Source: Welwitschia mirabilis
Taxonomy: Eukaryota
Assembly (NCBI GenBank): GCA_051453625.1
Contig: JBOZIK010000001.1
Location: 20,367,356 to 20,424,584 of the forward strand
DNA: 57,229 bases
Direction of reading: 5' to 3'
Below the pieces are notes generated by a model. That model was not told the origin of the DNA and searched no databases. It saw nothing but the letters and a program-made list of their open reading frames with translations. The position numbers and the translations under genes were made by a program. Of the stretch, positions 800 through 57,229 are shown piece by piece; position 1 is the stretch's first letter, and every line of letters starts with the position of its first letter.

Positions 800-3250
800 G
801 GCAGTATGATAAGGAGATATAAGAAGCTCAAAAGTAGACATCTAATACTAGTGAGGGGAAATAGAAATAAAGTCTCATTAGAAGGAGGAAAATCATTGGA
901 CAAACATAAAGCATACTTTTAACCTTCCATGGAATTAGCTGTTTGTTCTACATCAATTGATCTAACATCAATAGTAGGAACCTATAGAGACAGATAAATG
1001 GCCCAACCCATAGAATCCAAAGATGATGACATCCGAATAAACTTACAAGAAACTAGAAAAGGATTCCAATATAACTTCATGTAAAGTTTACTATAAGCTA
1101 CTAAATTACTGAGTAGATGCTCCTAAGAAAACTCGTCATCATGATATATGACCACAATATCTTCTATAGTAATAGCCAAATGGTCTACATAAATATAAAT
1201 CATCTGTTCACTCTTAGTCAGTCACACAAAAAAATGGCCATGCTAGGCTTCCAAAGCTACCAATTGAGAAGCATTCATCCTTGACTTCTTCTCAAAAAGA
1301 CATAAATTTTTCACTTAATTCTATAGAAATAAGAAGGATTAGTACAAAATAAGAGGATATTATATTCAAATAAATGAATGAGAAAATAACATTATCTCAA
1401 TCATGCAGAAGGTATTATTTATAATCTATTGTTGCTCAAGCCTATGGCGTGTCATGCACTAAAAAGATTTTAGTATATCTATTAAATTTTAAAAATCCTT
1501 CACCTGTTGTGGCCATTCTCGCTAAAGAATATAATGAAGAGTGAAACAATCTCTACGACTTAACTCGTAGTTATAAGAAAAGTTGCCCACATGAGAATGA
1601 TAGGATGAATTAACATCATCTAGGTATGAAGGATGAGTTACTTGAATATGAAGCATATTCCAAATAACCTAAAACTCCCTAATTTGGTCTAGTAATTCCT
1701 TGACCTATGTAATAAGGGACTTGAGCACTGAGAGTATCTTATTTGTCTAGTACATAACCTAACTTGCCTTATTAACAATGCTCATAGATGTAATAGGAGG
1801 ACAAGGAAAAGATTGTGTAACTTATTCTATGACTAGTAGATCTTGTGGCCTAAAATAAGGAAAATAAGGATATAATAGGAAATGTCCCCTCCTTGAGATG
1901 ATGTATCATTAAAATCCAAAAAATCATCATTAATATCTAGATCTAAGTTTAAAATTAATCATGAGAGCTATAAGAAAAGGAGAATATAAAACCACTTACT
2001 TTAATAGCTTACTCCCTTAGCTATTTTATATGTTCTATAACATGTAAGGGGTAAACTCCACCTCCACTTCATCTACAATAGGTAGAGTCTTTAAACCCTA
2101 TAAAAAGGAAGTAAAAAACACTTGCTTCTTGTTAAATGAAAGTAAGTAAGAAAGAAATCAATGTCCGTAATAAAATAATAAAGAATAAAACTCACCCCAT
2201 GAGTTTGAGTACAATGACAAAAGCTAAGAGATAGATCCTCCTTATTTACCTAGTAAGAAATTAGTTGTACCATGTCATTGTCCTTGCAAGGATGCAAGAA
2301 GTTCTAAAAACTAGAAGTAGTAACTCTATTCATATAACACCATATAAAAACAAACCATAATGTTAGATTCTTATTGAAAGAATAAGTGAACAAAATCCCT
2401 GCCTTAGATAAAATAAAGAAAGTACCCTCAGGATAATCCTAGGATCATGTAAATCCAAACCTTCTTCTTCCACTATACTAGGAGAGCATGAGTGAAGTAA
2501 CATTTAGTAGGGTACATTTTTTGCATGTATAAAAAAAGAGGGATAAGTTCAAGAAGAAGAAGACAATGGATATAAACTTTTAGACCTAGTGCTTGCAAAG
2601 TATAGCTTTAATAGCACATGTCCACATAAATACTTCCCCCTTTCTCCACTTCTTTTAAGATGAATAAGTTGGCCAAGGTAGAAGATAAAATAGCAGATGC
2701 CCAATTAAAATAAATACCCCTAACAACAAAAGAGGTTAAATACATAAAGTAATGGGGGAATTTGCTAGAATGATCATGAAGAAAGGCATGGTAAGCAATC
2801 AATTACTCACAAGTAGCATAATAAGGAGTCATGAAATTATTAGTAGTTACACCATGCCTATGGGTATCTATTTCCCTTATAAAAACAGATTTATCTAATT
2901 ATTTAAAGAATAAATCTCTAAAATCAAAATTTAAGCAAGTTGCCTTAAAAGAAATGTTATTTTCCTCACTTAAACCTAAATTCAAATGAATACTCTCCTC
3001 TAAGATAAAGATAAGGCCATGTATAGGTTGCAAAATGGTATTATTTTGAAAATCAAAAGAAGCATATGGGGAATCTAAGATATACAATATGGTAAGATGT
3101 CAAAGGAGGAAAAAAGAAAAACCATAAATATTAATTAGATTAAAAGAAAATACCTAAGAAAAACCTCATTGCAAATCCCTCTTTGGAATCTTTAATTCAA
3201 CAAAATGAACATTAGTGGAATTCGAAGAAAGATGAGGAAAAAAATGCTAT
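800..3250 (-). pseudogene. Decayed retrotransposon-associated extra (env-like/accessory) ORF
   Basis: Minus-strand frames read as protein broken by stops, e.g. PHYFMYLTSFVVRGIYFNWASAILSSTLANLF (ORF 2608..2802). A G-x-x-FNWA motif is common in plant LTR-element accessory ORFs. Family not identified. Confidence 0.4.
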
Positions 3251-18548: not shown

Positions 18549-21500
18549 ATGGTAAAGACAAAAATTCCTCGCTTTGACATCAACAACTATGAAGTTTGGA
18601 AGAGGTGCATGAAATTCTTGCTCAAATCAGAAGGCATATGGGAATAAACTCAGGAGGACTTTGAAGAAATTGCTGATGTAACTGATACAACTACCAAAGA
18701 GTAAATAGTTTATATGAAAAACAAGTTGAATGACAATAAGGTAATAACTTTTATTCATTCTAGTATGTCTGATGAGGATTTTTAAAAAGTTTCTAATTGT
18801 TCTTTAGCATTTAAATTATGGAATGGCTTAGATGAGAAATACAGAGAACATGAAAAAATAAGAGCTAATAGATTGCAAACTCTCAAAACATAATATGAGA
18901 CTCTTAGGATCAAAGAAGAAGAGTCAGTTGAAAGTTACATCTTAAGGGTGAAAGATGTTAAAACTATGATAAATCTAGGTTATTCAATCTCAGATAATGA
19001 CATAGTCCTTAATATTTTAAGAATAGTTCTAAAGTCATTTAAACCTCTCACTATCTCAGTTAACAAATTTCTTGATTTGAATAACCTTACATTAGATGAG
19101 CTCACTAAACATCTTGTTTAGTTTGAATACAATTTAAAAGAAGAAGAGGATGAAGAATCAAAGGCCTTTTAAGCTGAATCATTAAATGCATCTCATCCCT
19201 ACTTCTGAGAAAAGGGTAAAGGTACATTTTATGATAGAGGTTTTAGGGGAAAAGGCTACCAAAGTAGAAGTGGAAGAATCTTTGGAGGATGTGACCAAGA
19301 ATCCAACTTTCAACAAAAGCAGTAAGAGGGTCAATCATCAACATCAAATTAAAAAATGCATGAATTATTCTACTACTACACACAGGGGAACATAATGAAA
19401 GACTAGAAAAAGAATCAAATTTGAGTAAAATAATGCAAATCTAGCAACTGAAAATAAAGAACAGAAGTAACAGGATGCTTTCTTTAAAATAAAAGGTAGA
19501 ACTAAATAAGAAGAGGGGGAGGAAATTAGTTCTTTCATGGCTCAAGAAATAAATCTTGAAGTAAATTTATTTGCCCCATCATCAAAATCTACTTTGTGGT
19601 ACCTTGATAGTGGCTGTTAAAAACACATCACACATGAAAAGGAGCTTTTAAAGGATTTGTAATATGAAAACCTTAGAACCATTACTTTTTGAGGTGAAAC
19701 CATAGCTGAAATCAAAGGTATTGGTACTTTAGTGATCAAAAACCACCAAGGTGAAAACGTTTTATATTCTTATGTCTATTATGTACCTGGTTCATATTAC
19801 AATTTTTTTATCTTAGACAATTAGATGAATGAGGTTATAAAGCACTCTTTCAAAATAAAAAGTGCTTGTTATTCAAAGATAATAAGAAATTAGTTATCAC
19901 CAAATCTAATAACAACTTTTATAAAATAGCATTTGAAAGGGCAATGATTGAAAAAGAAGAAGAATTTTGGATTTGGCATCAAAAACTAGGACGTCCTTCC
20001 AATCACACCCTAGAAGTAATTTTGAAAAATGGGCTAGTTCATGGAATTTCCAAAATTTCGGTCCATCCCAACTTAACATGTAATAATTGCATTCATGACA
20101 AGCAAACAAGGACAACTTTCTCAGAGGTAAGTTCTACGACTTCTGAAAAATTACAACTTATACATTCTGATATTTCTGGTCCTTTTAAAACTCCAAGTTT
20201 AAATGGAATTTGTCAAATTTATTTTGTAAAATACAAGTCTCAACATTTCACTATTTAAAAGTTTATACAACTTGGGTTAAAAATATTTGTGAAAAGAAGA
20301 TCAAAGTTTTAATGAACGTTAATACTATTTCAAAGAATTTCAAAATTTCTTGCAAAAAGAAGGGATCCAGCATGTAATAACAACTCCCTGTATACCTTAA
20401 GAAAATGGGATTTCTGAAAGAAAAAAATCAATCTCTTTTAGATATGACCAGTGCAATGTTATTGCACTTGCAATTAGAGGAGGAGTTTTGGGCAAGCAAT
20501 AAGCACTACAAATTATTTGCAAAACAGATTGGTAACTAGCTTCTTGATAAATAAAATACCATATGAATATTGGTTTAGGAAAACACATTCCTTAAGTCAT
20601 TTGCAAATATTTGGAAATAAGCTATGTTAAAAGTGTCAAATCTAGTATAAACAAACTTGAACATAGATCTGTTAAATGCATCTTTATGAGATATTCCCAA
20701 AACAACAGAGCATAAAGATGTTATGATGTAACTAACAAAAAGATGTTGAAGAGTGTTGATGTGAGTTTCGTAAACTTCCAACATTTGGAAGACAAAAGAG
20801 ATACTAAAATCCATGAAAAGATTTTAGAAAATAGTTCAAAACACTTAGAAAATTTAGATTCTGAATTAGAAAACAATTTTGAATACAATTTAGATTTAGA
20901 AAGTAATGAGACTCCAAAATAAAATTTAGATGATAACCTATCTAATTTGTTAAATTTTGTCTCTGAACAACCTGAAAAAGAGATTAGGATGAATTCATAT
21001 CACTATGTCTCAAATATCCCTAGTAATTCATTTGCCCCTATATAACAAGAGCACAAGTTAGAAGGCAATTAGAAGAAAGTCAAAATATAGCTGAATGTAG
21101 GGCAGTTATAATAGAGTAAGTTGCCTTAGTATCACAAAGTTCTAACATGGATCTGTTATGTTACAAAGATGCAAAGAATACCCCACATTGGATGAAGGCT
21201 ATGAAACACAAAATTACCCAAATAGAGAAAAATAAAACTTATACTTTAGTATCTTATCCCAAAGCCAAAAATATAATTGGGACTAAGTGGATTCATCGTA
21301 CTAAGTACAATCCTGCCCATTCAATAAACAAAAATAAGGCTAGTCTAGTGGTTAAAGAATATGTACAAGAGGCTACCATTAACTATGAAGAAACCTACCA
21401 TTAACTATGAAGAAACCTATGCACCTATGGTAAGGCTAGAATCCATTAAAGCCTTCTTAGCATATGCAATCAAAGTTCAAATGGTACTTTTGCAAATAGA

Positions 21501-30600: not shown

Positions 30601-30876
30601 CTAATGAGCAGAACCGGAAACAGCATCGTTTCGTCCTTGCCCATCTCAGATTTTCCATCAATCGTCATCTGGTGCTTTCATCTCTGTAAGCTCACTTGCC
30701 TATGAGCTATTTCAGCAACTCCAAGTCCTTACTTGAATGGCACAGAAGCTCTTTCCAATGATAGTAAGAATAAGAAGATGTCTGGAAGCAAACGGAACCA
30801 GCAGCATCACCATTCTTTAGCACCAAAGCCGCAACCGCTATGGTTTCCGAGGAACCGAGCGGAACAAGCGGAAAGA

Positions 30877-31713
30877 ATGATAAGGTCTATTCGGCTGCTG
30901 CTTGCAGCCATTCTCGGAGCGGCCCTGCTTTTCACTTTCTCCACGAGGTTCACTCAAAGACTTGCAACGGTTCCAGAGATCTTTAACCAAATCCAAACCC
31001 TAAATTTCACTTTGCAACGCGTACAAAATGAGCTCGCAAGTACCAGCCAGGGACGAAGCCAGGCTAGACCGAGAGCAGGAGTATTCAACTCTACTTTGCT
31101 CTCTTACGCTGCTCTCGAGCTTGGCGAGGCGGACGAGAAGCAAAAGATCTCGAATCTTCTGGAAACCGCGACTTTACGTGGAAGGTATTACAGAAGAGGC
31201 GTTCCGAGGCACGATTCGGAGATAATTCCGTCTTCTTCTTCTGTGAATCGCAGACGAAGGCATTCGGCTCCGATTCAGATCTTCCATCCGCGATTCGCTC
31301 CCTTTTTGCCGGAATTCCGTCGCATTCTGCGATCCTGGGTGTCCAGCAAGCGATACGATCCCCGCGTTATGGCTGAACTTCTGGAACTGGTAAAATCCCC
31401 TTTGGACCACCATTTTAGCAACATTTCTGGACCCGTAGGAGCTTCAAGCTCCAGCCAGAAGCGATTCGGATCCTGCGCCGTGGTCGGAAACAGCGGAATC
31501 CTCCTTCAGGAATCCCATGGCGACCTTATTGATTCGCATGAGTTTGTAATCCGCTTGAATAATGCTCGGACAGCAGGGTTTAGGAATTCCGTCGGATCGA
31601 AAACTAATCTTTCTTTCGTGAACAGTAACATCCTTAATTTGTGTTCTCGTCGTTCCAGCTGCCACTGTCATCCCTACGGCGAAAGCGTTCCAATCATTAT
31701 GTACATCTGTCAG
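30877..31713 (+). CDS. GALT29A: GT29 sialyltransferase-like / beta-1,6-galactosyltransferase GALT29A-like, exon 1 (alternative in-frame ATG at 30778)
   Basis: N-terminal signal anchor [15 protein letters not shown]; sialylmotif [12 protein letters not shown]...[13 protein letters not shown]...[21 protein letters not shown]. Donor CAG|GTACTT at 31713/31714. MIRSIRLL resembles the Arabidopsis GALT29A N-terminus as recalled. Confidence 0.93.
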
Positions 31714-31975
31714 GTACTTTGATCGTGAATTGATTTTAGAATCCTAGAAAGTTTTGTTCTCGCGCTAGGGTTTCTGGAACTTTCCGTCTAAGACTTTACG
31801 GATTTCTGTTTCTGTTTAGTTTGGTAAAGATTTCATCATTATACACAGGTTTTAGTTGTGCGGACTTGCACTCTGTAATTGCGATATTTCCGTTTCGTTC
31901 TTGGGGCAGAGCAGAGCAGCACTTAAAAGTTGATCGTGGTTAAGATGTAATTGTTTTTTTGTTGTATTTTAACAG
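31714..31975 (+). other. 262-bp phase-0 GT-AG intron
   Basis: GTACTT... T-rich tract ...ttttaacAG. Splicing gives [11 protein letters not shown] in frame. Confidence 0.92.
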
Positions 31976-32404
31976 GCTGTGCATTTCATGGATTATGCCT
32001 ACTGTAGCGCTTCACACAAGGCTCCGCTTCTGGTCACCGACGGGCGCTTTGACAAACTCTGCGCGAGAATCGTGAAGTACTATTCTCTGAAGAATTTTGT
32101 GGAGAAGACTGGAAAGGGACCAGAAGAATGGGGCAGTGCTCATGAAGGTGCCATGTTTCACTATTCTTCAGGCATGCAAGCAGTGATGCTTGCCCTTGGC
32201 ATCTGTGACAGAGTCAGTCTGTTTGGATTTGGGAAATCCCCTTCTGCAAAACACCATTATCACACAAACCAGAAGGCTGAGCTGCCTCTCCATGACTACG
32301 AAGCTGAGTACCAGTTGTATCACGATCTCGCTACTCGATCACCCAACATTCCATTCCTTGGTGATGCCGATATTGATCTTCCTCCTCTGCGAATCTATCT
32401 GTGA
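31976..32404 (+). CDS. GALT29A: GT29 / GALT29A-like, exon 2 (421 aa total from ATG 30877; 454 aa from ATG 30778)
   Basis: Sialylmotif [24 protein letters not shown], motif III HHYH, motif VS HDYEAE. TGA at 32402-32404. Confidence 0.95.
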
Positions 32405-40001: not shown

Positions 40002-43000
40002 TGTAACACACTCACTTTAATTACCCTAATTAAGCATAATTTTTTTTACATTATTAACTAAAATGCAAAATGGAACCGAGGATCAATTCCTGTTTAGATC
40101 CTATTAAAATATTGTAAGATTTAAAATAATTAAATAACATCGTTATTGCTTAATTATAGACCCTTTTGGTTTGCATACAATAACGATGCCAAAGTTTTGT
40201 CCTATAGTTATTTCTAAATTTTGTTTTCGTCAGACAAAGATATTTTGTATAAAGTTGATGTGATAGAATATTAACTTGTTTTATCACATGCACAGATAAG
40301 CTTTAGGATAGTGTCTATCCAATACAATAAAAGGTTGCATTTCCCATTAATGGCATTCCAACTTGATATATGGCCAATCTCCAGACGTGAGTTGGCTCTA
40401 TGTTAGGTTCTAGACTATACAAATATGGCTAGGCTCAACTTCGTAGGCTTAGACCTTACCTTGATATATCTCAAATATACGTGACAGGTGGTACATGAGA
40501 TGGATGCATGCTTACAAATGACACTCGCTTCCTTGAAGCATCTGATGTAACATAATCCTTTGATACCAAAGGCTTGAGATACTAAGTCATAACAAGTTCA
40601 TACATGGGTAACGCAGGAGAGTGGTGATTAAATTCACTTCTAGAGAGCTTTATAAATAAAAGTACAATGCAACCCACCTTGGTGATGAAATCTGAGTATG
40701 GAAATGAACAATTATTGAGGTTATGTTGATTTAGTTGAATGAATACACTATATATATATATATATATATATAAACATATAATTACGTGGATATTTAGTGG
40801 AATCTTTACCTAGTAGAAATAATTCTAATCATCATTAGATTTATTTTATAAAAACAATCACACAGAAGAAAAATAAAGTATATAAGCATCATTTTGATTT
40901 TATATAAAAGAAAAATGTTAAATTCGTAAAGCATAATAGTGAATATAAATGAAATAAAACATTCCTTTTTTTCCCCATATTATAATAATTCTTTTCAAAC
41001 TAAGGCACATTAATATATACAAGTTCTATTATAGAAATATGTTCCATTTATGGAATTGAACCAATTTCTAAACCTCCTTTATAACTTCTAAGTATGTATA
41101 TCAAAATAAAGTTAAGTAAGATATATATAATTTATCAAAATAAAACATTAATAAAGTTGGGAGATTAGGCTACACATCTCTAGAATTATTAAGTAGACAA
41201 ACCTAATGTTTATGTCTGAGATGTAAGAATGAGGGCCTAAATATTAATAAATAATATATAAAAATGATAAAATAACAAATTTAAGTTAACTAGAAATCAT
41301 ATATAGTATTTAAAATAATTGAATACTTACATTAACTAATTTTTCATAATTATTAAAAGTATTTACAAATTTTCTTAGCTTTTAAAAGGCATTAAAACTA
41401 AAAATTTCTAATTAATTATTTAAAAATGTAAAAATAAATTATACTTTCTTTCTTTAAGCTAGAGTCGTCATATTATCCTTAAAAATTAAGATTATTAAAT
41501 TTAAATTAGTATAGAAACATTTTATAGGGATAAATATGACTATAAAACTGCTCAAATTTTGGAGTTACCAAAATAATACATTATACTAAAATGGTTATAA
41601 CATTTAATCTACTTGGAATTGTTAAATGAATAGATACTTTTTGAAAATCGTATTGAATTCTCTACAACTTGGATAACTTTATTTTTACCCAAAATGACTT
41701 GTTAATTTTAAGCATGAAGACTTTTTGCTTACTATTTTCTGCTTGTAAATTTTGAGTTATTTTCATAAAATAAATTTTAAAAATTATTCTACTAGCAGAA
41801 AAATTACTATTTTAAAATTTTAAATTTCTAACATGATTCTAAAATTACATAAAAATGTTATAAAGATTCATTTAGTATTAATTAAGTTATAGCTTTCTTA
41901 AGTTAGGCTTCACTTTTGGGAAAAAGAAAACTTTAACTACACTAAAGACACGAGAACTCTTACTTATCAAAATTAATAACTTCACTAAAAATTTATAATA
42001 AAATTATTATAAAAATTGTGTAATAATAAGTTATAAATAATATAAGCTTAACTTACAACAATAATAAATGCAACAAAATCAAGAGCCTTAGAATCTTTCA
42101 AGAAGGAGTGCTTAGCCTAAATGGATTTTAAGGATCAGATTTATTCACCCCAACAAGAACTCTAACATTAATTAGATGCAAAAGAATCTAAAATGCATTT
42201 CAAAAATAATATAATTAAAAAAAAGGGTACTTAAAATTATAGTGAATCCTTGATCAATTATCCAAAATATCCATCATTAACCTCCTCAACTAAGCCTGTA
42301 AAGAGATCCTTCAAATCCCTTTTTTATCTTAGTCTTAGTCAATAGGAGGAAAATGTTCATTGGTAATCCTATCAAATAAGCATGTAAAGAGATTCCTCAA
42401 ATCTCTTCCTTATTTTAGTATCAGTCGATGGGAGGGATAACATTAATGCCACATTAATACTATAAGCATATGCATAGGCCTAATGTAAAGATACTAGTAT
42501 GGAGCTAAAATTCTTATAAAAGAAGAACTTACTATGATGGAAAAATATTGATTATATTTAGAGAAGTTTTAATGGAGTGTTAAGCTCTAAGATTCTAGAT
42601 CCAAGCTTCAAGCTTTAAGCTCCAAGCTGCGACTCCACACTCAAGAGGATGAAAGATTGAGAAGAAATTTAAATAACATAAACGTGCTTGAAGAATATTA
42701 GCTTGAGAAGAAAGAAGAGGGCTATATTTATAAATAAACAATGTACCAATGTTCTTAATATCATTGTTCTAAGACACCCACATCATTCTACCCATAAGGT
42801 AAATAAATCTCTTTTACTTGATGAGCTTGATTAATGATAAGTTGGATGCACTTGTATAAAAGTATTATGGACATATGAATGACAAGTGATAAGATTAATC
42901 AATGACAAGTTGTATGAACTTGTATGAAAGTAATACTGACATATAAATGATAAGATTCATTAATGAAAAGTCATAAGAGCTTGTGTAAGAAATGAAAGTA

Positions 43001-49430: not shown

Positions 49431-50810
49431 GGAGTGAAAAATATTATTAGATTTGGTTAACAATAAGATTAATATTATATTAAGAGTTGAAGTTCATATG
49501 TTCTTAATAAAGATTGTGTTATAATCACTAGATAATTAATTTAAACTAAATTATCAAATTAATTTATCTTCCTTACTCACAAAGGGATTTGTTCTATTAG
49601 GCTAATAAGTTACCAATAGCGGTTAGAAATCATGGGGAAAATTATATAATTGATTATAACTTAGTTGAGGATTTTGATCATTTTTAAGGGTATATATGCT
49701 TATGATATATTTAATTATGTTTTGTTTAAAATGATCAAGCTCTATAGGATATCATATGAGAATATGAGTTTCATAAGTAAAGATCATTATCCCTATTTAT
49801 AAGGTAATAAAGTTTTTAAAGACATGCTTAAGTACTAATTATCTAATTAAGATTGCTTAGGAATTAGAGTTAGCATGAATATAATTAACTTAATGCTTAT
49901 TTATAGATTACCATGGGTACAATAAACTTTATGATTAATTAATCATTATGATTTTCATAACTATAATTATTTAGTAACTAAGATTATCATGAGCATAATT
50001 AACTACATAGTTATTAGCATTAGCATGGATGTAATTTACTTAATCATTTATGGATTAGGACCATCATGGTTTTAATTAAATTCATGATTATTTAAGGATT
50101 AGGGTTACTAAAATTATGATTAATTTCATTTTTGCTTAGGAAATGGGAATTATCTTAGACATAAGTAACTTCAAGATAATTCACAAAATAGGATTGTAAT
50201 AGGTATAATTAACTTCATGATTATTTGGTAATTAAGGTAACNNNNNNNNNNNNNNNNNNNNNNNNNNNNNNNNNNNNNNNNNNNNNNNNNNNNNNNNNNN
50301 NNNNNNNNNNNNNNNNNNNNNNNNNNNNNNNNNNNNNNNNNNNNNNNNNNNNNNNNNNNNNNNNNNNNNNNNNNNNNNNNNNNNNNNNNNNNNNNNNNNN
50401 NNNNNNNNNNNNNNNNNNNNNNNNNNNNNNNNNNNNNNNNNNNNNNNNNNNNNNNNNNNNNNNNNNNNNNNNNNNNNNNNNNNNNNNNNNNNNNNNNNNN
50501 NNNNNNNNNNNNNNNNNNNNNNNNNNNNNNNNNNNNNNNGTAACTTCAAGATAATTCACAAAATAGGATTGTAATAGGTATAATTAACTTCATGATTATT
50601 TGGTAATTAAGGTAACTATAAATATAACTAATTTTATAATTATTTATGACTTGGGATACTTAAAAGTATAATTAATTTCATGATTACTTTACAAATTAGG
50701 ATTATCATAAATATAATTAATTCTTTAGTTAATTAGCAAGTAAGTTTATAATGAATATAATTAAATCTAGTTTCAAGTAATTAACATAAACATGATTTGA
50801 GTTAATGTAG

Positions 50811-50822: not shown

Positions 50823-51165
50823 TTACATAACACGATTACTTTTTTTTTTTTCTTTTTGAAAAAGAAACCGAGCATTATATTAAAAAAGTAGTAGTTACAG
50901 GGAGGGGCAAAAGAACCCTATGCTAAGGTTTATAAGTAAACCTAGTTACACCAAAAATCTGCCTTTAAAAATTCACACGAATACACTAAAAACGAGACAT
51001 GAGATGTTTATTGTAAAAACAGGGGGAAAAACCCCATAGCTCTTAGTACTAAAATAGAACATAGCATAACTATAGAAGAGCTAATTTGAACTATAAGAAA
51101 ATAGCTGGTTAATATCCCATGTAGCTGGAGAATAAGTGGCTATGCTTGTGCTAGACCAAGAATCA

Positions 51166-51330
51166 TTATAATTCATCTATCAGAGGCTTAAATGCCTGAT
51201 TTACCTCTTTAAAGTGCTTTACTCCTTCTTAGTTCTTATCAGGATGAATTCTTAAGGCCTTCTTCCAAAAACTCGATTTAATAACATTCAACAGAGATCT
51301 ATGGAAGATGCTGAGGATCAAGAAGGCGCA
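51166..51330 (-). pseudogene. DnaJ/Hsp40 J-domain at the C-terminus of the LINE ORF2 frame
   Basis: Manual translation: CAFLILSIFHRSLLNVIKSSFWKKALRIHPDKN*EGVKHFKEVNQAFKPLIDEL*. HPD at 51246-51238. Confidence 0.88.
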
Positions 51331-53340
51331 TCTCTTCATCCCATGGATTGTGGTTAATAGGACTTCTCTCCTTATATGGTTCATATCAATATCTTCATGA
51401 GTTACCTGATTTTCTTCCTCTGAGGTGGGGTCTGAATGGTTATGATATTTTGTCCCCTTACTATGTTCGGGGCTATCAACCTTCTTCTGAGGGATTTCCT
51501 CCTTACCTTACTTAGGCTGTGATTGCTTCTCTTCCTACACTTTGATAAGGGTTTCTGCCTGACCTGGTGCAAGATAAGATTGTTCCTCTTCTTGTGTTGG
51601 GGGTGGAATTGACTCTTCCTCTATAGAAGTCTCTTGGGTTGGAGGTGAAGTCACTTATCTCTGAGTCTGAAAGCCTTCTAACTCATTCTCCTACTCACAT
51701 TAAGAATCTTTATCATTCTCATCCATTTTCTTCTTTTTTACTCTGGGCTATTAGGTCTCATCTAATGTCCTTTACTGAGGGGGAGGGGAGAATGCCTCCC
51801 TCACCCTCAAGTCCCTTGTAGCTCTCCACAGAGCCATGACAAGGCTTGAATGCCTTGTAGTATTCTTTTTTCACAATATTTAGAGGAATAAGTAAGGTAA
51901 ATTAATTTGGTTCTCTAATTCTAAGGCCTTAAGAAAGATGAAATGCAATTCAAGCTTCGAAAAATACCCCGTCTGTATGAAGTATCTATCTATCAATTCT
52001 GCACCTAANNNNNNNNNNNNNNNNNNNNNNNNNNNNNNNNNNNNNNNNNNNNNNNNNNNNNNNNNNNNNNNNNNNNNNNNNNNNNNNNNNNNNNNNNNNN
52101 NNNNNNNNCTAAGGCCTTAAGAAAGATGAAATGCAATTCAATCTTCGAAAAATACCCCGTCTGTATGAAGTATCTATCTATCAATTCTGCACCTAAACCC
52201 CAAGGGCATGGAAGTGCCTTTCTACTAATGTATCCACTTAATAGCTTAGGGATGCCTCTCGGGAAAAAATGAAAAGCCTTCCTTTATCCTCTACAGTTGA
52301 GTGGAATTCTCTCCCCTTCCATGGGAATTTTTAGTAGGNNNNNNNNNNAAGAAAGGGATTCTTCTCTGATTTCAATTAGGATTCTTTTGAATGTGGTTCT
52401 ATGCCCTCTCCACCTTCTATAGAATGGGGTGATATTGGCCTTGGACTCTCCTTTCAATTTGTGCATAAGTGCTCCCTAGCCCAGGGCCTTCACCTTGTCT
52501 CGAAGGGCCATGCATCCTTCAAACAAGCTTAAATTTTCTGGTTTATACATTGGAGTGACCCCTATAGCTACCCAAATTTGTGAATGGTACCATATGATTT
52601 TCCTAGCATTATTAATAGGGAATGTAAGGGAGGAATTATTTAAAATCAAATCATTACATGTACGATATATCTGATAAAGCGTCAGGTGTATCCCATCCTT
52701 CATGCATGTCTCAGTTGTTTTTTTGGTCTCGTAGTAATTTGTCATTAATTCCATTAAATCAAAGATTCATTTGCATTAATGAAATAGGTTTTGTGCATCT
52801 TCTTAATTTGAGTGACAAATTGGATAATTAGTAGTAACCTAAATGTCATGTTTAATCAATTGGTCTCTTGTCAAAAGTTGATTTGGTCCTTCAACCATTA
52901 AAAACTCTTGATCTTGTCAGGTATCTGCCCACTCCCAAAACTCTTGTAGACTTCATTTTTACCATACTTCTTGAGGATAATCATTTTAGTTATGTCTTTA
53001 TTAGAGATACCTAGATTTATTATATTACTTCTGGCATTAGAAACATGTTTTTTGAGGTAAGACTCTTATTTACTTGTGCTCCAGTTTGGATACTTATAAT
53101 TGATTAGATCACTTCATGGTTGATCACTCTTAAGCAAGCTTTGATTATTTTGTGAACTCCAATGAGAAGACAATCTTCTGGCTTATGAATTCCTTAACCT
53201 CATGCCTCATTGAGGCAAGTAAGGAAATCCCACTTACATAGGTGAATGCATCTTTTATTATTACCTCCCAATCAAATGAAGTCTTTTATCATTTTATTGA
53301 TTTTTTATTATAAATTTGAGGGCGTGCACAGTTTGGTTGT

Positions 53341-53391: not shown

Positions 53392-56300
53392 AGCATATGG
53401 ACCAGAAGGATGCAACTAGGTAAGTATTTTCTATGATGATTTTGGCTTTGGAAGAAAGAAATGTATTTAGCCATGCATTATGTTTCCTCTGAATTAACTC
53501 CAAGATGAAGTTCTAGGTCAGTGACTTATGCTAATTTCTGAGGACAATTCTTAAGTAGATGTCCTAAAGATCTTCCATTTTTACATTTGAAATTCTAATG
53601 ATTTTGCTACTTCTTATGATGCTTTTGCCAACAATATGAATTCGATACTTATTCCAATTAGTTCAAAGACCTGTGACATCTATGAAGAGATCCATGAAAT
53701 TCTTAGTAGCTCTAGCCTGTTGATAGGAAGCTTGAATCATAATAATTGTGTCATCTGCATAGTGATTATTTATGAATGTTTGACCTTATATTTTAATTCC
53801 TGTGACTTCATTGCTTCTAAGAATTCCCTATAAGACATTCATGATGAACAAAAAGAGGTATGGGGATAAGGAATCCCCCTACCTTAATCCTCGACCTACT
53901 GAAAAATATTTAGATCTATGATTGGTAATTTCTACTCTGAACTCACCAAAATCTTGAATGCCAACCCATAAGTTTGTGATGTCAGAGTTAAATCCGATTT
54001 TCCTAAGAATACAACCTAAATCTCTCTAGCTCACGAAATCATATGTTTTTGCTATGTCTAATTTAGCAACGAGTAAAGAAAAATTATGCTTTTTAACAGA
54101 ATGGTTGATTTCATGAGTTAGGAAGATTTGGTCCTGGATGTATCTAGATTAGATAAAGATATCTTGGCTCTCAGAGATAACTTTGGAAAGGAGGGGGCAA
54201 TATGGCCCACCATTATTTTGGTGAAGATCCTGTAAAGAATGTTGCAGATACCTAAAGGTCTGTAGTATTCTAGTTTACTGGTACCTCGTTTCTTGGAAAT
54301 GAGTACAACCTTGGTTTTATTGATCTTTATGGGAATGCATTTATTATTAAGAGTATCTAACATTACATCATGAAGTTTGTCTTCCATGATGGAGAAGTAG
54401 GCCTTAAAACAGTTCTACTGGCCATCCATCTAGCCTTGATGCTTTATTGTTCTTTATGGATTGCAGGGCTATTTAGACTTTTCTCTATCTAATGGCCTAA
54501 TTAAGCAAGCATTATCTTTATTAAAATTTTTCTTATCTTTTGGAATATGTTTGGGGTTAATATCTTCCCACTCCCACACATTTTGGAGGTGGGTCTGCAT
54601 TTCGTTGGTAATATCCCTTCATTTTCAACTACTTGCTTTTTGATTAGAGGCCTTCTAATTTTGTTATCTATTCTATGTTGATTAGCCTGTTGGAAGAAAC
54701 ATTTGGTGTGTCTATCCCCTTTTTTAAGCCATTTAATCCTGGATCTTTTCCTTTAATGATTCTCCTCATTTGCATTTATTTTTTGAAGTTCCATTAAGCA
54801 TCTGTACTCCTTATTGTGAAGGTTGTCCTTATCTCCTCCAAGTTTCTGCTCTATTTGGATATCTTATAATGTTTTTTCCACTTTCTTTTTCAACTTGAAT
54901 CTTTCATTGGCCTTCTTCTATAGTCCTTGAGATATGCCGTAAGAGTGTTTAAGCATCTATATAGAAAGGTTAAATGAAGAGTGCTATCATATTGGTTTTA
55001 AATCTTTTCAAATATCCTTCTAGTCTTTTTCCTTAACATCTAGTATCTCCTCATCTGAGTGGGGGATCTATTGGGTATTATTACCCTTATTCTAAATTTA
55101 ATTAGTTAGTGATTAGAGGTTACTCTGTTTAGTTCCCATGCTTCAATATGCAGCTTGGCTATATCCTTTCTAGTCAGAATTTGATCGATTCTGGACATAA
55201 TCTGGTTACCTCTCATTCTCCTATTAGACCAAGAGTATTTGCATCCCGTGATTAGAATATCTGAGAGATAATTTTACTCTATAAAATATCTAAGGATTGC
55301 TACCTTCTATTATTCTAGTTTTTACCCCCTGTTTTCTCCCATCTATGAAGGTATTAGTTAAAACCCCCCATAACAATCCATTTAGCTTTTTCCACTACTA
55401 AACTCTATAAATCCTTTAGCATTGAGGCTTTTTTTAGATTGTTTTGAGGTCTGTACACATTTGTGATAGTCCATTCTTCTTCCTTAAGGTATATAATTAA
55501 GTGATGTTTATTGCTATGAATTAAATTCACCTCCTTTTTCATGAGGGTCATGATTCCTTCTAAATTTCGTTGAGCTACAGAGGTGAATTTGTTACAGTGT
55601 TTTAAGAAATTGTCTAATTTCATACTATCACATATCTTCATCTCTTGTAAATAGACTAAGTTAGTATTGAATTTACTAATTAAGTCTCTTAGGGTCTTCT
55701 TCTTATAGGGGAATTCTAATCCTCTACAATTCCAAAAGAGGCACTTCATCAGGTTTGTTTTTGCTTCTTTCTAGGCATCCCTTGACCTTTTTTCAATGTG
55801 TCTTCAATAGCTACTTGGGATCTATTTGCCATGTTTTCTGCAGTTTTCCTATCTTAAAGTATTCTATTGCTGGGCCTTCCCTTCATATGGTTTTTGATAG
55901 CATTTATCTTGTCTATGTTCACTTGTTTTTGAGATTGAAAAATGTCTCTATCCTCTTCTTCCATTAGGTGTTGAAAGGAATTATACACTTGGTCTTTTTT
56001 CTTCTTTTTCTTAGGGTAAACTATTGTGTTTTTGACTATTTTCTCTTTCTTCTATTTATGCTAGCATTCATTCTAGTTGTGTCCTATCTTTCCATAGAAG
56101 GAGCAGATTTATTTCTGCTTGTCCTCAATCTTTATTTGCCTTTTCTTGAATTTGTCCCTTTCGTGGTCTTTTTCCCATAGTGTGAATCTTTTTTCTTCCC
56201 TCACACATATTCTTAATGCATATCCAATATTCTGGCATGTCTCACATGTTACAGGAAGGTTCTCATAAGTGACTTCCAAGTCATACATTTCCCATTTGGA

Positions 56301-57065
56301 TTTGAATTTCACAAATTGAATCTCCTTTATTTCTTTAATGCTAATTCATATACAAAAAATTTCTAGAACCAATTTAGTTTGTTTAATAATGATTCTATCT
56401 AGTTTTATCAGCTCTCCAAATTGAGAAGTAATTTCCCTCAGAAGATCTTTGCCCGAATACTCTAGGGAAAACCTGTATATGTAGGTCCATATATGTAGCT
56501 TTTTGAACAAATGCATATTTTCTTATGCCCTTGACGTCCATTTGACTAGAGTTAACCCTCTTATTCCAAAGAACCATGATCTTCTAGTAATAAATTCATC
56601 TTGATCCCATTCATTATCAAGCTAAAAAGGTACCAAGACTTCTGACATGGCTATGATCTCGACTTTGCTAATCTCTGTCCTTGGTGACTACCCATTCTTT
56701 GATAAGATCAAGTCTAGGCCTTGGGTCAAACAAGATAAACTTGCTGATCAAACTGTATTGAAGTTTCTTCTCTATTTCAGAGCATGTGTCTTTAGCTATG
56801 TCTAAAATAAGGGTTTTTCTCTTCTTGAAGGACTAAATCTTCTCTGTTTCGAGGGTAAGAGCCTTATCTTAAACCATTTTACAAAACAACTTTGATAAAA
56901 GAATAAACCCACAACTAACTTTTTGAACCATCTATAAGCTAGTTGAAATCATCCCCGTATGTGTTGCAGCTCTCTAGGATCAAAATCGTTCTTCTCATCC
57001 TTAGTGCTTCCAAAACCTTATCTTTCACCTTCATTCTCTTATGCCTTTCTCCTTAATAAAAGATT

Positions 57066-57229
57066 CATAACATCCTTAATTTAATTATCCTAATTAAGCA
57101 CTTTTTTTACATTATTAACTAACATGCACAATGAAACCTAGGATTAATTCCTACTTGGATCCTATTAAAACATTATAAGATTTAAAATAATTAAATAACA
57201 TAATTACTACTTAATTATAGATCCTTTTG
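57066..57229 (-). repeat. Resumption of the Tekay 5' LTR (runs off the window)
   Basis: Colinear with 40002-40168 (ttaatta.cctaattaagca...gatcctattaaaa...aagatttaaaataattaaataaca). Confidence 0.9.

Follow-up and report, generated by a model that had tools for sequence, protein, structure and literature searches.

The window analysed here, a stretch of 57,229 nt of Welwitschia mirabilis DNA (contig JBOZIK010000001.1), carries on its minus strand, from about 57099 to 50840, a decayed, roughly full-length long interspersed nuclear element (LINE) of the plant L1 type. This element appears to represent a LINE subfamily that has captured a J module. A J-domain lies at its 3' end, in the reading frame of the tail of its second open reading frame (ORF2), and the last ~1 kb forms a module composed of a linker of ~180 codons, the J-domain, which appears class-A-like, a 3' untranslated region (UTR) and a poly(A) tail; this ~1-kb module was not seen in five related LINE proteins. 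The LINE copy in the window is dead. The explanation that we favour, tentatively and with a confidence that stops a little short of even, is a fusion of ORF2, linker and J-domain in a LINE subfamily, the three of which would have been translated as one protein. The features of the 3' part of the element are the following.

51883-52765, minus strand: C-terminal tail of ORF2, of no recognisable family; ~228 codons after removal of an assembly artefact, open in one frame
51343-51882, minus strand: hydrophilic linker rich in E, T, K, P, S and Q; 180 codons with 10 stops, period-3 signal in phase with the J-domain
51172-51318, minus strand: J-domain remnant, helices I-III with the HPD motif; Pfam DnaJ (PF00226), E 6.6e-8, 33.0 bits, above the cut-off of 27.8
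51163-51168, minus strand: tandem stops TAA TGA closing the J frame directly after helix III, from the translation of the frame
50858-51162, minus strand: 3' UTR, multi-copy; 305 nt, no period-3 signal; read in the J frame, 11 of 102 codons are stops
50840-50857, minus strand: poly(A) tail, 3' end of the LINE; 18 nt including one G, read directly

The J-domain remnant

A J-domain had been proposed at this place by a first-pass annotation made from the letters of the sequence, and the significant match to the DnaJ profile bears this out. The match comprises residues 231-279 of P0002 and positions 5-56 of the 63 positions of the profile. In a comparison with the PDB, the best structure was 2och (dnj-12; E 6.3e-8), and DNAJA1 was matched with an E value of 4e-5; the alignments to both are gapless across helix II, HPDKN, the short loop and helix III. 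The HPD motif stands between helices II and III, as RIHPDKN in the translation, and is aligned to the HPDKN of 2och. Two defects are evident in the domain, a TAA codon directly after HPDKN and a W replacing a conserved R. The W codon of FWKK, which had been described as one C>T change away from FRKK, is indeed TGG. The remnant is thus that of a real J-domain, which appears class-A-like. The UTR and poly(A) tail that had been announced behind it were also found, the former being 305 nt long instead of ~325 nt and the latter running from 50857 to 50840.

The J-domain is present as a single copy within the window itself. A search of a protein atlas with the 92-amino-acid (aa) open stretch returned a DnaJ cluster at rank 2 (0.90), which is taken as a lead only, and a metagenome scan with the same stretch yielded 598 pattern matches, none of which was confirmed. 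When the frame of linker plus J-domain was compared with proteins of near length, none of the 552 candidates scored. Two matches to this frame from an exhaustive search were rejected, one being a repeat artefact and the other a generic tandem DnaJ. No RNA run was listed as containing the locus. At a likeness of at least 99%, none of 182 RNA reads in X14 and none of 34 in X17 was retained, the depth over the J block being 0-0.6 (about a quarter of each run).

Copies of the J block in two DNA runs

From two DNA runs, named X1 (organism A) and X3 (organism B), Logan contigs were aligned to the window at 80% likeness. The contig counts below refer to contigs with a letter differing from the window at the place indicated. 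Both runs contain the locus of the window itself (0.89 of its words in X1 and 0.86 in X3) and are therefore close kin, not independent witnesses of age.

51080, J block: 56 contigs in X1, 59 in X3
51468, J block: 38 contigs in X1, 27 in X3
51569, linker core: 4 contigs in X1, 3 in X3
51657, linker core: 4 contigs in X1, 8 in X3
51720, upstream part of the linker: 59 contigs in X1, 55 in X3
52730, LINE tail: 70 contigs in X1, 66 in X3
53027, LINE tail: 51 contigs in X1, 48 in X3

Since tens of contigs cover the J block in both runs, it is a repeat, and neither a single-copy host gene nor a single capture. The J-block contigs that stem from other copies are mostly less than 90% alike. The longest pieces listed (51075-51449, 51658-51992, 52220-52722, 52358-52781 and 52740-53122) differ from the window by 16-19%. 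Identity among the copies is ~82%, which is near the 80% cut-off, so that a faster-changing stretch would drop out of the alignment. Summed depth was 334-581 for the J block and 444-833 for the coding part of ORF2, compared with 102-111 for the linker core, 123-176 for the 5' UTR and 190-303 for the spacer between endonuclease (EN) and reverse transcriptase (RT), a pattern that fits constraint on the J-domain during the activity of the family. Outside the gap of undetermined bases (N), a single 3-nt insertion (at 51951) was the only indel within 50860-52330 among the 12 of 47 rows listed, and no pile-up of loose contig ends was found inside the element among the 21 of 7094 rows listed.

The ORF2 tail and its frame

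Two further features lie in or next to the tail of ORF2.

52766-52907, minus strand: zf-RVT, weak, second half of the profile only; PF13966, E 0.034, 15.2 bits, under the cut-off of 27.5
52009-52196, either strand: assembly artefact of 188 nt, comprising the 100-N gap and a second copy of 51921-52008 (88 nt); recognised from the joints in X3 contigs

The 100-N gap is flanked by a direct duplicate of 88 nt (51921-52008 and 52109-52196, 99% identical). In X3 contigs, 51951 is joined to 52154 or 52160 by 17 or 23 intervening letters. As these joints of other copies lack the duplicate, the 88-nt duplication is an assembly artefact and collapsing it is justified. A second gap, of 10 N at 52339-52348, corresponds to places of which 9 or 7 are missing from other copies. 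Once the duplicate is collapsed, 52283-52109 and 52008-51166 share one frame, with 14 stops in 286 codons, and the earlier statement that a single frame runs from the ORF2 tail into the J-domain thus holds. A similar arrangement occurs close by, in the satellite next to the poly(A), where the 77 nt from 50540 to 50616 have an exact second copy (50165-50241) beyond a 298-N gap; this is probably another gap artefact.

The first half of zf-RVT is visible by eye in another frame, with a frameshift near 52883 between the halves. Other copies (5+5 contigs in X1 and 6 in X3) are longer by one base behind 52883, and this accounts for the frameshift. The segment from RGIPKLL to LGAELIDRYF (52283-51880), which the first-pass annotation had taken for zf-RVT-like, gave no zf-RVT match at E values up to 10, and that label was wrong. 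The segment belongs to the tail, whose frame has 2 stops in 215 codons versus 20 and 19 in the other two frames; by segment, there is 1 stop in 139 codons at 52349-52766 (13 and 13 in the others) and 1 in 76 at 52109-52338 (7 and 6). This frame reaches a TAA at 51880-51882 and, three codons on, a TGA at 51871-51873.

A protein search with the RT piece returned five LINE ORF2 relatives (P0005-P0009), 28-37% identical to the RT of the window, the three named ones of which are from plants. RVT_1 is present in all five, zf-RVT in three, Exo_endo_phos in two and RVT_3 in some. The ORF2 tails of P0006 and P0008 are 256 and 258 aa long and contain RVT_3. The tail in the window had no Pfam match, RVT_3 being absent even at E values up to 10, and a profile built from the tails of P0005, P0006 and P0008 did not detect RVT_3 there either. 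Compared with longer proteins, none of 259 candidates scored. The well-preserved 228-codon tail occupies the position of RNase H in related LINEs. A likeness of some of its motifs to RNase H, noticed by eye, was supported neither by Pfam nor by the tail profile and was discarded.

A coding-like linker in the J frame

The 540-nt linker shows a strong period-3 signal, with a power of 3.69 compared to 0.74 ± 0.43 in shuffled sequences (z 6.9), a value that none of 1000 shuffles reached. Each half of the linker is significant by itself (z 2.4 and 5.0); for comparison, z is 2.5 for the RT piece and -0.6 for the 3' UTR. Codon position 2 in the J frame is A with a frequency of 0.47 and G with 0.11, and the A/G phase is stable from 51828 to 51379 (~450 nt). 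Among the 353 windows of 540 nt across the whole stretch, that of the linker ranks joint third in period-3 power; of the two above it, one is a copia gag and the other is unexplained. No tandem repeat was detected in the linker. Because the period-3 signal is strong and phase-coherent, the linker resembles hydrophilic sequence that once was coding, in the frame that the J-domain and the ORF2 tail share.

At 51402-51620, another frame of the minus strand also stays open, for 72 codons. GC content is higher in the linker core (0.46) than anywhere else in the element, and a bin with a GC content of 0.43 has normal depth. The stops in linker and J-domain had been described earlier as TAA or TAG codons that each arose by one C>T change from a Gln codon. 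All six are TAA or TAG, but at least one of them, at 51655-51657, does not fit this description: 4 X1 contigs and 8 X3 contigs have a base there that yields a Glu codon. This stop is therefore private to the copy in the window and did not come from Gln. Between 51739 and 51726 there is an A-rich stretch of 14 nt which includes 2 G and is not a clean poly(A).

Fusion, passenger or neighbouring repeats

The fusion of J-domain and ORF2 is supported by the shared frame, by the coding-like linker and by a depth over the J block that exceeds that over the linker, the 5' UTR and the EN-RT spacer. In addition, the only clear poly(A) follows the UTR of the J-domain, and there is no clean poly(A) between the ORF2 tail and the J-domain. 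Several observations weigh against it. A shared frame has a chance of 1 in 3 unaided. The TAA at 51880-51882 and the TGA at 51871-51873 sit 229-232 codons past zf-RVT and may be the true end of ORF2. Past 51882 the density of stops in the linker is near random expectation, and none of its six frames is more open than the others (7-15 stops in ~180 codons), the J frame being nothing special in this respect. The J-domain is incomplete, lacking helix IV, and is not in an intact frame; a Met stands 4 codons ahead of helix I, near the position of the N-terminus in class A DnaJ proteins, and may hint at a captured 5' (first) exon or be due to chance. The linker core is thinly covered: in the bin 51452-51674 the summed depth is 111 and 102, versus 333-581 in neighbouring bins, and just 3-8 contigs cross it, with 74-80 letters to the contig end, so most copies may lack the linker core or differ there. 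The contigs, at 300-500 nt, are too short to link LINE and J block copy by copy. DnaJ occurs in none of the five nearest LINE ORF2 proteins, the combination of linker and J-domain is absent among 1.84 billion representative proteins, and the searches described above revealed neither an intact copy nor a protein combining RT and DnaJ.

These stops would have a simple meaning if the J module were, at the level of the family, an untranslated passenger and ORF2 ended at the TAA/TGA at 51880-51871, an explanation that we hold to be possible, on the whole rather doubtful. An active LINE copy would have gained a host 3' transcript or part of a flanking gene by 3' transduction or RT template switching, and an extra ~1 kb in the 3' UTR would then have been amplified without the J-domain ever being part of a LINE protein. 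Passenger captures are far commoner than domain fusions. The stops lie where standard ORF2s end, the A-rich stretch just past them could be an old tail, the near-random stop density past 51882 and the Met where J-domains of class A normally begin are as expected, and the multi-copy state with a single terminal poly(A) is equally well explained. However, even depth would be expected of a passenger, yet coverage of the J block is 3-5 times that of the linker core; the period-3 phase of the linker and the J-domain both share the frame of the ORF2 tail, for which the chance is again 1 in 3; the A-rich stretch is crossed at 51720 by 59 (X1) and 55 (X3) contigs; and no host protein with linker and J-domain was found. 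The thin coverage of the linker core would also result from two separate repeats lying side by side, with the LINE ending near 51700 and an independent J block at ~51480-50840, either a retrocopy family or part of another element, connected by a low-copy join. Depth and contig counts do drop tenfold between 51720 and 51468, the depth over all contigs being 18.8 at 51569 and 25.9 at 51657 against 167 and 362 beside them, and the J block, with a Met, UTRs and poly(A) of its own, is about as long as a small mRNA. We nevertheless consider this arrangement improbable, as a separate insertion of the J block has left no clean poly(A) and no target-site duplication, 3-8 contigs of other copies bridge the thinly covered part in each run, both blocks have similar copy numbers, loose contig ends do not pile up at either edge among the 21 of 7094 rows listed, and the phase of the period-3 signal holds from 51828 to 51379, through the place where the two repeats would meet. 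Moreover, the drop over the linker core could be explained by an identity of ~82%, near the 80% cut-off, together with the highest GC content (0.46). Finally, the finding of one copy in the window would agree with a single-copy host DnaJ gene or pseudogene downstream of the LINE, or with a one-off 3' transduction. We give this hardly any credence: in each run, 27-59 contigs of other copies, mostly less than 90% alike, lie over the J-domain and its UTR at the places counted, and the block contains stops and a poly(A) but lacks introns. An event confined to this locus is excluded, and the one-off capture that the first-pass annotation had named as the finding that would speak against its proposal is contradicted by these counts.

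In the fusion that we favour, the ancestor of a LINE subfamily would have acquired the J module from a host gene of the DnaJ type; the module would then have been copied along with the element tens of times and would most likely have been read as a C-terminal extension of ORF2. The linkage of tail and J-domain in most copies and their translation as a single protein are inferred, as would be any chaperone function of the J-domain. In such a scheme, the J-domain might bring host Hsp70 in cis to the new ORF2 protein or to the ribonucleoprotein (RNP). The full proposal, a plant L1 ORF2 with its own J-domain on a disordered linker that would recruit Hsp70 in cis to fold or activate the RT or the RNP, seems to us unlikely. 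The assembly of LINE RNPs and the activation of RT depend on host chaperones in several systems, and a J-domain encoded by a LINE would, if real, show selection for the recruitment of chaperones in cis. If the module is a passenger, it is an ordinary, well amplified capture of host sequence by a LINE.

The 5' part and the ends of the LINE

The remaining features of the element are the following.

56370-56672, minus strand: ORF1 with DUF4283; PF14111, E 1e-7, 32.1 bits, above the cut-off of 27.2
55309-55737, minus strand: remnant of an APE-type EN; Exo_endo_phos, E 0.0083, 16.3 bits, under the cut-off of 24.5
53636-54408, minus strand: RT domain, in two frames; RVT_1, E 5.1e-15, and blastx to the plant LINE ORF2s P0005-P0009
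57099-57108, minus strand: putative 5' end of the LINE; weak candidate target-site duplication, adjoining the edge of a high-copy repeat at 57102-57111

The DUF4283, Exo_endo_phos and RVT_1 matches, obtained with Pfam on read-through translations in which stops were written as X, lie in three different frames, and this LINE copy therefore carries frameshifts. Two decayed CCHC knuckles follow DUF4283 in ORF1, recognised by eye only. By blastx, the EN remnant matched the N-termini of P0005 (E 0.006) and P0008 (E 0.001), and the comparison with the five LINE ORF2 proteins confirms the RT part and supports the EN part. No Pfam match was found in the three frames of the plus strand over the element. 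Over the RT core (53682-54127) the contigs lie 3-6 times deeper than elsewhere in the element; members of further LINE families are probably also retained there at 80% likeness.

At the 3' end, reads appear cut at 50831-50867, around the poly(A). The candidate target-site duplication, an A-run followed by GT at 57099-57108 versus 50846-50838, is a 9-nt match made mostly of A, which is at chance level, and no target-site duplication beyond it was found at the presumed ends of the LINE. The flanks of the LINE are two different repeats. An AT-rich satellite of 44-nt tandem units (49836-50780, GC 0.17) adjoins the poly(A), with a summed depth of 43,564 and 122,494, and a very high-copy repeat at 57102-57229 (summed depth 68,534 and 79,159) has its edge, at 57102-57111, by the 5' end. 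A copy of the latter repeat, 85% alike, is found at 40004-40168.

Other features of the window

Two exon-like open frames on the plus strand at 30706-32404 resemble plant GT29 sialyltransferases (Glyco_transf_29, E 1.7e-22 and 1.5e-12) and sit in the GC-richest part of the window. A decayed Ty1/copia gag with a strong period-3 signal is located at 18600-19400 on the plus strand (Retrotran_gag_2, E 3.8e-18). The highest period-3 power of the window (4.14) belongs to 2701-3240, where no Pfam match in six frames and no long open frame were found.

Comparison with known systems

The LINE in the window resembles the plant L1-type LINEs P0006 (Rosa rugosa, 1324 aa) and P0008 (Rhodiola kirilowii, 1304 aa) in its order of putative EN, RT and putative zf-RVT, and plant L1-type LINEs generally in an ORF1 with DUF4283, a tail of ~230-260 codons after zf-RVT and a poly(A) end. 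It differs from them by its RT, which is 28-37% identical to theirs, by the lack of a detectable RVT_3 and by ~240 extra codons of linker and J-domain. With the class A J-domains of C. elegans dnj-12 (2och) and human DNAJA1 (2m6y, 2lo1), the remnant shares the gapless succession of helix II, HPDKN, loop and helix III (E 6.3e-8 to 5.5e-5). Those domains are N-terminal, include helix IV and are followed by glycine/phenylalanine-rich (G/F) and zinc-finger regions, whereas the domain in the window is C-terminal, ends after helix III and is decayed.

Chimaeras produced by 3' transduction or template switching of LINEs, as in human L1, carry host sequence downstream of the LINE with a foreign poly(A) and are usually of single or low copy number; in contrast, the block described here, of which there are tens of copies, lies in the ORF2 frame. 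The large T antigen of polyomaviruses, which are DNA viruses, has an N-terminal J-domain with a demonstrated function. The LINE would similarly be a selfish element equipped with a J-domain for the use of host Hsp70.

The full-text literature searched, which did not extend to Repbase or Dfam, contained no paper describing a J-domain LINE. In insect R1 LINEs, an SF1 helicase domain was added C-terminally in ORF2 (PMC4686597), which provides a precedent for a foreign domain at the C-terminal end of ORF2. LINE clade, host and added domain differ from those in the window, and the R1 domain lies within ORF2 by the account of its authors, whereas the position of the J-domain in ORF2 is putative. A LINE with a captured host domain is thus known as a kind, and the version with a J-domain appears to be new; if the fusion is real, it would add another kind of captured domain to the short list from non-long-terminal-repeat elements, which includes RNase H and the R1 helicase (PMC4686597).

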